DNA of 45,470 nt from Planctomycetota bacterium (GTDB lineage: Bacteria; Planctomycetota; PUPC01): contig JBDREM010000124.1 in the NCBI GenBank assembly GCA_043819695.1, positions 1-45,470 on the forward strand, given 5' to 3'. The position numbers and the translations under genes were made by a program. The notes under the pieces are model-generated. The model ran no database searches. It saw only the letters and a program-made list of their open reading frames with translations, and was not told the origin of the DNA. Positions 30,405 through 33,400 of this stretch are shown one piece after another. Every line of letters begins with the position of its first letter. Positions within the stretch are counted from its first letter, which is position 1.

Positions 30405-33400
30405 TTATTGGCCGGCCGCCTCGGTCGTCTCGGGCAGCTCGAGATGCTTCGCAAGCGCTTTTCTGTATTTGGCGAACCCCGTGCCGGCGGGGATCATGTG
30501 GCCGAGGATCACGTTCTCTTTCAGGCCGAGCAGGTCGTCGCGCTTGCCGGCCAGAGCGGCCTCGGTCAGGACTTTTGTCGTCTCCTGGAACGATGCCGCC
30601 GAGATGAAGCTGTCGGACCGGAGGGCGGCCTTCGTGATGCCGAGGAGCAGCGAGCTCGCGCCGGCGGGCCTGCCGCCCTCGCGCACGGTGCGCTCGTTCT
30701 CGTTGCGGAACAGGAACTTGTCCACGATCGAGCCCGGCAGGAGGTTGGTGTCGCCCACGTCCTCGCCCACGAGCACCTTCCGCAGCATCTGCGAGATGAT
30801 GATCTCGATGTGCTTGTCGTTGATGTCCTCGCCCTGGAAGCGGTACACCGCCTGGATTTCCTGAAGCAGGTATTTCTGGATCTCCTCTTCGCCCTTGATC
30901 CGCAGAATGTCGTGCGGGACGAGCGGGCCGTCGATGAGCGGATCGCCCTCGCGGACGAAACTGCCCGTCGTGACCAGCAGCCGCTTGCCCTGCGGCACCA
31001 GGTGCTCGCGTTCCATGTCGGCCGCTTCGTTGCGGACGATGATCGACCGGCGGCCGCGCTTGCGTTCGCCCAGGTGAACGACGCCCGATATCTCGCTGAT
31101 GACGGCCGGGTCCTTCGGCTTCCGCGCCTCGAACAGCTCGGTCACACGCGGCAGACCGGCGGTGATGTCCTGCGTCCGCCCGATCAGGCGCGGCGTGCGG
31201 GCCAGAACCGTCCCGGCCTTGATCCGCTCGCCTTCCTTCACCTCCATGTATGCCTTCTCGGGAACCGAGTAGACCGACAGAATCTCGCCGGCGGAATCCT
31301 CGATCAGGATCTGCGGATGCAGGTCGCCCTTGTGCTCGACGATCACCGAGCGCTCCGACCCGCCCGAGTCTATCTCCTGCCGCACTGTCTCGCCTTCCTC
31401 GATGTCGATGAACCGCGAGACGCCGTCACGCTCGGCGATAATGGGCACCATGTGCGGGTCCCACGACGCCAGTATCTTCCCCGCCGACACCTTCGCGCCC
31501 TCGGCCACGCCAAGCCTGGCGCCGATGCGGAGCGGATAACGCCGCAGCTCGCGGTCGTTGGCGTCGCGAAGGACGAGTTCGCCGTTCTGGTTCAGCACGA
31601 TGACCTCGCCGTCGGCGTTCTCGACCGACTGGACGTTCTCGAAGAGGAGCGTGCCGGCGGCTGCGGCGCGGTAGTCGGCGACCGCGGCGCCGCGCGTTGT
31701 CGCAATGCCGCCGATGTGGAACGTGCGCATCGTGAGCTGCGTGCCCGGCTCGCCGATCGACTCGGCCGCGATAATGCCCACCGCGAGGCCCTCCTCGACC
31801 TTATACCGCGTCGAGAGGTCCATCCCGTAGCACTTCGCGCAGATGCCGAACCCCGCCTCGCACGTCATCGGCGAGCGGACCTTCAGGCTGTCGTAGCCGA
31901 GTTCCTCGACGGTGGCCGCGACGGCGTCGGTGATGAACTCGCCGTCCTCGACGACGATCTCGCCCGTTCGCCGGTCGACAACCGTCTCGGCGGAGACCCG
32001 CCCGAAGATCGCTTCGGCCAGCGAGACCTCGACCCGGTCGCCGGTGTAGATGACGGTCTTCGTGATGCCGTTCGTCGTGCCGCAGTCGTCCAGCGCGACC
32101 ACGACGTGCTGCGCCACGTCGGCCAGCTTCCGCGTCAGGTAGCCCGACTCCGCCGTCTTGAGCGCGGTGTCGGCCAGGCCCTTCCGGCCGCCGTGCGTCG
32201 AGCTGAAATACTCGAGCACCGGTAGGCCCTCGCGGAAGTTCGCCTTGATGGGCGTCTCGATGATCTCGCCCGACGGCTTCGCCATCAGGCCGCGCATGCC
32301 GGCCATCTGGCGAATCTGCATCGTCGTGCCCTTCGCGCCCGACTCGAACATGCACCACAGCGGGTTGAGCGTCGACGTGCGCTCGATCCGCGCGCCCGTG
32401 ATCTTACCGTCACGGTCACGGTCGAGCCGGACGGCCCGCCAGCCGGCACACGCGATCGCCGCGCCGAGAGGATTGTGGCTGGTGTTGTGCCAGTAAGTGG
32501 CGTACTGGTCGGCGCTCTTGGGGAGCTCTGCTCCCAGGATCTTCTCGATGTTCTCCGCCGTAAGTTCGACGTAGGGCACCGCCGGCGGTTGTCCGAGGAG
32601 GAACTTGTTCAGGGGTTCGTACTTGCCTTTCTTCAGCAACAGATCGATCGTGGCGCCCGTCAGCTTGCCGCGGGCGTCTCGCTCGAGCTTCCGCACGCGC
32701 CAGCCGGCCGATGCGATCGCCTGCTGGAGCGGGTTGTGCGTCTCGTCGGCCCATTTCGCATCCAGCTCTTCCTTCTCGGCAGGCAGCGGCATCTCGAGCA
32801 CTTCCGCCATCTGGGCGGCGTCGAGCTTGACCTGCGTCCGCTCCGAGAGCTCGGCCTCCCGCAGGAAGCGCTCGAGCGGCCCGCAGTGCGGAGCGTTCAG
32901 CTTAAGCTCCTCCATCACCCGGTCGGCGACGCGGTTGCTCGCGTGCTGCCAAGTCTCGGTCACCTGGTGGTGCCGCTCGCCGTCGGTGATCAGGCCGCGG
33001 CGGTAGTTCCTCTCGATCCGCTCGACCTCGTCCTGTGCGTCGCCGATGATCTCGCGCTTGTCGCCCGGCACGCGGAGGTCGTCGAGGCTGATCGACAGGC
33101 CGGCGAGCGTCGCCTCGCGGAACCCGAGCTGCTTGATGTTGTCGAGCAGCGTGATCGTCTCGGCGCGCCCGGCCAGGCGGTGGCAGTCGCTGATGATCCG
33201 GTTGATCCAGCCCTTGTCGAACGTGACGTTGTAGAACGGCATGTCCTCGGGGATGATTTCGTTGAACTTCACGCGCCCGGCCGTCGTGCGGATGCGGCGG
33301 TTGGCCGGCAGGTCCTCCGTGCGATCCTCGGTCCTGACCTGCGAGCCCTCCGGCAGGCGCACCTCGATCGGCTGGTGCAGGTTGATGCGGCCCGCCTCGA

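Follow-up and report, generated by a model that had tools for sequence, protein, structure and literature searches.

Lineage-specific insertions are the main way in which bacterial RNA polymerases differ from one another, and those that have been studied, among them SI3, beta i4 and i9, and actinobacterial beta-prime i1, control pausing, initiation or factor binding. In what we take to be the usual numbering, SI3 is beta-prime i6 and lies in the trigger loop, i2 is the Thermus insertion and i1 the actinobacterial one. Here we describe an insertion in the beta-prime subunit of an uncultured Planctomycetota bacterium (GTDB lineage PUPC01), encoded by the rpoC gene on a 45,470-nucleotide stretch of contig JBDREM010000124.1 (assembly GCA_043819695.1; hereafter, the window). 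Like SI3, Thermus i2 and actinobacterial i1, it is an in-frame, independently folded and lineage-restricted surface domain, and it shares with known beta-prime insertions a construction from tandem repeats of one small domain in varying copy number. Unlike them, it ranges over one family and not a phylum. We consider it very probable that the element is a lineage-specific insertion of tandem DUF7662 units into the funnel domain, with a history of domain capture and duplication.

The comparison with described insertions draws on a 2024 survey by Alvarez-Carreno et al. (PMC11515920). In the portions of that article accessible to us, beta-prime uD4 corresponds to 638-806 in the type 4 reference, insertions are recorded at seven sites (two in bD2, and bD4, bD5, uD5, bD6 and bD7), and the inserted beta-prime domains are HABAS (sandwich-barrel), BEAN or sLC. 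The planctomycete insert aligns to E. coli beta-prime ~703-711, inside the uD4 funnel and outside all seven of these sites, and its units, unlike HABAS, BEAN or sLC, are predicted to be winged-helix-like. The terms "Planctomyc" and "uD4" are absent from the supplement of the survey, and no description of the insert was found in the literature on lineage-specific insertions, rim helices and Planctomycetes rpoC, with the Lane and Darst 2010 catalogue left out of that search. A preliminary description of this locus, made from the sequence, had suggested a possibly undescribed insertion, and the accessible part of the survey agrees with it. The phenomenon, a lineage-specific polymerase insertion, is a known one; the domain type and the site are absent from the survey within the same limits.

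The preliminary description had read about 170 extra residues in RpoC, at 32371..32895, as a tandem pair of repeats. The extra sequence is real and measures 177 residues (32370-32900); the coordinates first given are correct when read on the minus strand in the right frame, and the residues quoted, 724-802 and 812-889, match the translation exactly. In phmmer comparisons with beta-prime chains in the Protein Data Bank (PDB), RpoC residues 15-716 align to E. coli 12-702, and residues 19-715 and 885-1528 align to Xanthomonas 16-702 and 712-1367. The upstream conserved block ends at residue 716 and the downstream block starts at 894, leaving 177 residues where E. coli and Xanthomonas have ~10. 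The comparison with solved chains thus identifies ~165-170 residues of RpoC as extra, and none of the 60 PDB beta-prime chains listed by phmmer covers the insert. Pfam Rpb1_4, the funnel domain, matches residues 888-939 alone (profile positions 41-107), a restriction indicating that the insert splits this domain. The two repeats, of 87 residues each, are related by 31 identities over 79 aligned residues (39%; BLASTP E 2e-18), and repeat 2 displays a conserved HNPL...AGWR core and a 16-residue hairpin motif.

On its upstream side the insert is bordered by the end of the second rim helix, and on its downstream side by the helix that runs into the SGAKG loop. Most positions of this downstream flank are invariant in all four aligned insert-bearing RpoCs; its helix and loop lead to the F-loop and bridge helix and line the secondary channel. 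The upstream flank aligns to the rim helices, which we take to span 649-703 in E. coli beta-prime. The earlier placement of the site after the rim helices stands on this alignment, while its wording "beside the rim" draws on sequence position and textbook knowledge. In the accessible parts of two reports, beta-prime G671 lies in the rim helices (bioRxiv 10.1101/2021.01.27.428476), and the same helices serve as the docking site of TraR and DksA-type factors at the entrance of the channel (PMC6970531). Judged from its flanks, the insert would lie at the base of the rim helices, on the face of the enzyme that bears the secondary channel.

The insert is fixed, in two or three copies, in every informative genome of one uncultured Planctomycetota GTDB family, which answers the question of taxonomic distribution and copy number raised in the preliminary description. 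Across 41 relatives, it is present in the genome of origin and in seven of nine others of the family, and in none of 31 genomes from 20 other families. The two family genomes lacking a match are uninformative, because their rpoC contigs stop short of the insert (one ends at residue 644, the other begins at 910). A profile of the repeat unit, built from 18 units of nine rpoC loci (A2), found rpoC-embedded copies in five of 201 genomes of the phylum, all belonging to this family (the genome of origin and four of five others); the fifth family genome in that set is one of the truncated assemblies. When the insert with both flanks served as the query, 146 of 151 genomes matched. Among the matches listed, only five family genomes align through the insert, and non-family genomes align as two flank pieces; the gap between the flanks in five Planctomycetota genomes of other families is 3, 4, 6, 7 or 29 residues. 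A word-indexed search of 5.8 billion proteins recovered three further insert-bearing RpoCs (79, 53 and 53% identical in the insert), one of them with three repeats, and the metagenome proteins that carry the insert number four, at 40-79% identity. Three DUF7662 units instead of two occur at the same site in P0003 (1629 amino acids [aa]) and in locus L007 of genome G003. One bin (G007) holds two differing rpoC fragments that both cover the region after the insert (C206/L006 and C195/L009); at 5% contamination, it probably mixes two strains.

The name DUF7662, proposed in the preliminary description, is borne out by Pfam. PF24698 reaches 32.3 bits for repeat 2, 36.2 for the whole insert and 29.0 for the whole protein (cut-off 26). 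For repeat 1 by itself, Pfam reports no DUF7662 match at E<=1, and the unit profile matches it at 110.5 bits; its weak Pfam match to RPC3_helical (E 0.069; 14 bits, cut-off 27) was treated as noise. Searched against 1.84 billion representative proteins, the unit profile finds 1196 at E<=1e-3, 45 at <=1e-10 and 5 at <=1e-30, so that the stand-alone relatives postulated for the unit exist. Pfam assigns DUF7662 to all of the best 150 of these 1196 matches, which include free-standing proteins of 80-100 aa, proteins with two or three copies, long proteins (1100-1300 aa) with arrays of as many as 10 (P0005, P0007) and one partial Planctomycetota RpoC (P0009). Partner domains within the best 150 are DUF4268 (13), CBS (7), DUF6884 (4), HTH_8 (3) and HTH_17 (2), with single cases of HEPN_Swt1, GmrSD_C, Mrr_N, GIY-YIG, NERD and EAD1. 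Source annotations read "hypothetical" or "DUF7662 domain-containing" only, the name was not found in the literature, the family has no described function, and a search of a protein language-model atlas returned DUF7662 clusters only.

An alignment of 53 sequences (A3), comprising the 18 RpoC units and 35 free-standing proteins, defines what the embedded and free forms have in common: a KYxPL...LxxIExIxGxxLP...W...AGW[KR]V core, with shared positions Y8, L11, L15, L27, I32, L40-P41, W51, A66-G67-W68, a basic residue at 69, V70 and D74. W51 is invariant in all 53 units, and P41 reaches 100% in both the RpoC and the free-standing set.

Several members of the family stand out for their architecture or surroundings. 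P0005, P0006, P0007 and P0008 (769-1314 aa) consist almost wholly of 6-10 tandem DUF7662 units, and a 379-aa member of the P0005 cluster comes from a Pseudomonadales metagenome-assembled genome (MAG). A single-protein scan for related loci gave one family member and one free-standing gene in a Bacillota genome, the latter lying between two phage-type integrase genes. Within the 201 Planctomycetota genomes, the only other DUF7662 genes are fusions in two of five genomes of another family (L026:244-1737 in G213 and L027:1498-2454 in G044), which have opposite domain orders; their partner of ~200 aa, with the pattern FHSEADFQHALAW...D...ELKY, appears PD-(D/E)XK-like by eye and has no Pfam match. 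PADLOC, NCBIfam and PHROGs models matched neither the insert nor the 3 to 11 free-standing DUF7662 proteins tried, and DUF7662 itself was accordingly rejected as a defence-system or phage component. In fused forms, the partner domains alone match the candidate defence families PDC-S11 and PDC-M57A, with DS11_antiphage below cut-off.

An AlphaFold2 model of repeat 2, built from A3, has a predicted local distance difference test score (pLDDT) of 92.0 and a predicted template modeling score (pTM) of 0.79. Together, this confident unit model and PF24698 give the insert both an independent fold and stand-alone homologs. The modeled elements (helices 9-16, 29-36, 42-46, 49-52 and 58-65; strands 25-28, 70-75 and 81-86) follow the winged-helix order helix1-strand1-helix2-helix3-strand2-wing-strand3 as predicted, with an extra short helical segment between helices 2 and 3 relative to winged helices. 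Structural neighbors are distant. Foldseek against the PDB gave no match at E<=1e-3 (best RepE, E 0.16, TM 0.51), and an exhaustive VIA-align search found two chains at Z>=5 and none at Z>=8: RepE at Z 6.0 (78 residues, root-mean-square deviation [rmsd] 3.2), the Pi initiator at Z 5.5, CtsR at Z 4.6, and CRP, GntR and Stn1-type winged helices at Z 3-4, values for which the aligner itself cautions that Z <8 may mean a common arrangement only. RepE and Pi share with repeat 2 the order of helices and strands, and 78-79 of 87 residues superpose at rmsd 3.2-3.3, but the Z scores stop at 6.0 and 5.5 and identity is 9-16%. A PDB sequence profile search with the unit returned nothing better than E 0.58. 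The preliminary description's "winged-helix-like" therefore holds for the predicted topology, while the structural matches are weak; we call the modeled unit winged-helix-like and leave homology to a solved family open. Folding the whole insert from its single sequence performed poorly (pLDDT 63.6, pTM 0.47), and a complex prediction of repeats 1 and 2, for pseudo-dimer packing, was uninformative either way (score 0.02, mark 0.32).

Phylogenetic analysis bears on how the module arrived. In a maximum-likelihood tree, the RpoC units stand apart from eight free-standing proteins (98/97) and most repeat-1 units group together (87/91); third copies fall among repeat-1-type units without resolution and do not clearly have one origin. 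A tree with a wider outgroup joins the RpoC units and P0024, P0032, P0034 and P0036, against 18 other DUF7662 units (99/97). In the large database, the nearest non-RpoC subfamily comprises 14 proteins; eight of these carry a Fis-type helix-turn-helix (HTH) domain, HTH_8, behind DUF7662. One of these HTH_8-linked members comes from a Candidatus Poribacteria MAG, and the unit profile did not find the HTH_8-linked subfamily in the 201 Planctomycetota genomes. Such proteins (P0032, P0034, P0274-P0278) resemble the RpoC units in an acidic SAxEYxxFWRD helix and an RD..KI hairpin; they differ in being proteins in their own right, 130-255 aa long, and in having one or two HTH_8 domains and a short N-terminal segment. 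Tree and distribution together point to a single capture followed by an early duplication, with further copies gained later, in keeping with the earlier idea that a small domain was captured and duplicated inside the polymerase. A DUF7662 domain from an acidic subfamily otherwise joined to Fis-type HTH would have been captured once in the family ancestor, duplicated in tandem before the genera split, and supplemented by a third copy in some lines. Recent foreign DNA can be ruled out by GC content, which is 0.665 in the insert and 0.661 in the gene, with a somewhat lower value at third codon positions (GC3).

Relative to free-standing forms, the RpoC units have altered charge and surface residues. 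The median isoelectric point (pI) of 68 free-standing proteins of 75-105 aa is 9.49, with 71% above 8, whereas the insert as a whole has a pI of 6.5. Positions 45, 46 and 48, following LPxSA, are K/R in 31-49% of free forms and D/E in 39-56% of RpoC units, and the aromatic residues F29, W50, W63 and F83, found in 69-86% of free forms, become A, Y, I and G. The 18 RpoC units have near-invariant positions of their own (N57-P58-L59 at 94-100%, G79 at 92%), mostly conserve R69, R72, R75 and K80, and read PLGAAIAxAG in the helix at the recognition-helix position. Because the acidic segment is common to RpoC units and HTH_8-linked relatives, it is probably older than the capture.

Table 1. Features of rpoC and its neighborhood in the window
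Feature	Position	Strand	Basis
rpoC, RNA polymerase beta-prime, 1547 aa	30405..35048	minus	Open reading frame (ORF) and translation; Pfam Rpb1 domains 1-5; PDB beta-prime chains E = 0
Insertion, residues 717-893, 177 aa	32370..32900	minus	Gap in alignments to solved beta-prime chains; splits funnel domain
Repeat 1, residues 716-802, diverged acidic DUF7662-like unit, pI 5.4	32643..32903	minus	BLASTP to repeat 2
Repeat 2, residues 803-889, DUF7662 unit, pI 8.8	32382..32642	minus	Pfam PF24698; AlphaFold2 model
Upstream flank, residues ~662-716	32901..33065	minus	Aligns to E. coli beta-prime ~649-702, rim-helix hairpin
Downstream flank, residues 894-907, conserved helix and SGAKG loop	32328..32369	minus	Aligns to Xanthomonas 712 onward
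SI3-type sandwich-barrel hybrid insertion in trigger loop, residues ~1203-1285	31194..31442	minus	Pfam RPOC_hybrid 33.7 bits, two stretches
rpoB, directly upstream in operon	35219..38950	minus	NCBIfam TIGR02013, 1599.9 bits

The gene lies in a nusG-rplK-rplA-rplJ-rpoB-rpoC-rpsL-rpsG-fusA cluster and is the single rpoC match in its genome (88% complete, 374 contigs), where no second rpoC was found. The ribosomal protein L4 ORF of the same window (26060-27067, minus strand; 335 aa) matches L4 at residues 138-321 only, indicating either a long N-terminal extension or a later start codon. A sister species of the same genus (G001) encodes an RpoC (L002:2500-3510, minus strand) with a further insertion of ~337 aa between CYYLTA and FSDTDEAL, where the RpoC of the window has ~25 residues. 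This insertion matches Pfam PF21790, an OGG-like putative 8-oxoguanine DNA glycosylase (32.5 bits; cut-off 27), and its site is the region called beta-prime bD4 in the accessible text of the 2024 survey. Long frames around rpoC also appear, among the matches listed, in other Planctomycetota, namely in G058:C3 (2620 aa), G028:C75 (1877 aa) and G148:C151 (1827 aa), compared with ~1360-1490 aa in most genomes of the phylum, and may represent other large rpoC insertions or fusions.

What might the module do? Both of its ends appear to be fixed a few residues or less from the wall of the secondary channel, and a module held in this way would have to protrude from the enzyme's back face, at the rim-helix base. 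We suggest that it may serve as a tethered docking or regulatory surface rather than as a nucleic-acid clamp, a reading motivated by the near-neutral charge of the insert, the loss of the basic segment, the separate HTH in the nearest relatives and the new invariant positions. Candidate partners are the SI3 trigger-loop insertion, or channel factors such as the long planctomycete GreA and DksA, and the outcome of docking would be to tune pausing or factor access. An SI3-type insertion is present in the same RpoC as a possible neighbor; by analogy with E. coli and cyanobacterial structures, in the parts of those sources accessible to us, SI3 would lie near the rim helices. GreA_GreB C-terminal domains are encoded by the genome of origin and seven of nine family genomes, and DksA-type zinc fingers by the genome of origin and all nine. 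The retention of both gene types rules out the insert as an answer to lost secondary-channel factors. GreA of this organism (L041:2656-4869, minus strand, on contig C335 of G000) has 737 aa, with GreA_GreB N and C domains at 579-730 preceded by ~575 residues without domain assignment, and similarly long GreA frames (~730-830 aa) occur in most genomes of the class and phylum searched. We hold the docking or regulatory mechanism tentatively, at somewhat short of even odds, and for the explanation as a whole, combining anatomy, history and mechanism, we estimate a probability of roughly 0.5.

A more specific version of this idea treats the module as a sensor. The nearest relatives carry DUF7662 ahead of a Fis-type HTH, which is where a regulator would have its sensor or effector domain, and on these grounds the polymerase might have hard-wired the input domain of a one-component-type regulator. 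The tandem pair would then act in cis, responding to a protein signal, a small molecule or backtracked RNA that has been extruded, and setting trigger-loop/SI3 behavior directly, with no diffusible factor; in Proteobacteria, DksA and ppGpp act near the foot of the rim helices. We regard this version as improbable.

Several observations weigh against the docking reading and the picture around it. Its partner is hypothetical; GreA and DksA-type genes are equally common outside the family and show no co-variation with the insert; and where the module lies with respect to SI3, the rim helices and the mouth of the channel is something that we infer from sequence position. The match to winged helices is weak, with nothing at Foldseek E<=1e-3 or at Z>=8, and the many DUF7662-nuclease fusions keep nucleic-acid binding open. 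Moreover, the insert evolves faster than its host protein (53-79% identity, against 81-94% in the rest of the protein, in the further RpoCs), has a lower GC3 (0.862 versus 0.926 for the gene), and varies between two and three copies, as would a loosely constrained decoration. These last features, rapid change, low GC3 and variable copy number, would suit a tolerated passenger, a domain that entered a surface loop able to accept it, was copied by slippage, had little chance of clean removal and has no specific role; the additional 337-aa rpoC insertion elsewhere in the same-genus relative likewise suggests that planctomycete rpoC tolerates insertions. Members of the family are 41-61% identical in the insert and 76-82% in the rest of the fragment. 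Yet the ratio of nonsynonymous to synonymous substitution (dN/dS) of the insert stays well below 1 (0.29-0.43, versus 0.14-0.25 outside the insert; with dS close to 1 or higher, these ratios are rough, and pairs with L002 were left out as confounded by its extra insertion). Every informative genome of the family, which covers at least seven genera, retains at least two intact copies, the RpoC units have acquired invariant positions of their own (HNPL, G79), and no frameshifted or decayed copy occurs in the nine loci read. A passenger without function therefore seems unlikely to us. A fragmented metagenome assembly, in which the rpoC contigs of two relatives break close to the insert, could also invite explanation as an assembly chimera, an intein or a mobile insertion outside the mature enzyme. 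This is extremely improbable: the insert is in frame, recurs in eight separate genomes and four further metagenome proteins, has the same GC as the gene, and at E<=1 matches DUF7662 alone in Pfam, with no intein/Hint, transposase or endonuclease domain.

The preliminary description suggested a possible nucleic-acid-binding module. On such a reading, the paired winged helices would contact RNA or DNA on the side of the secondary channel; the target could be, for instance, backtracked RNA whose 3' segment is extruded through the channel, or DNA close to the jaw. The winged-helix-like topology is compatible with this, and the best structural neighbors (RepE, Pi and CtsR) are DNA-bound, but these matches are weak. 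Fusions of relatives to NERD, HEPN, GIY-YIG, GmrSD_C, Mrr_N and DUF4268, and to the by-eye PD-(D/E)XK-like partner in another Planctomycetota family, also place DUF7662 in nucleic-acid company, as does the basic character of most free-standing forms. Repeat 2 is mildly basic and the RpoC units largely keep R69, R72, R75 and K80; against this, repeat 1 is acidic, the insert as a whole is near neutral, and positions 45, 46 and 48 have turned acidic in many RpoC units. The PLGAAIAxAG helix occupies the place of the recognition helix, and the nearest relatives bear a separate Fis-type HTH. Charge and residue composition argue against canonical binding through helix 3 and the wing in the RpoC units, and we judge a nucleic-acid-binding role rather unlikely.

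The domain type is new among the polymerase insertions listed in the accessible text of the 2024 survey, at a funnel site absent from that text. Next to the site is an entrance that Gre factors, DksA and several antibiotics exploit, and DUF7662, an uncharacterized family, gains a constant location that hints at function. Alongside the OGG-like insert of the sister species, the finding suggests that rpoC in planctomycetes is unusually receptive to captured domains. Its reach is modest for now, extending to one family of uncultured organisms.

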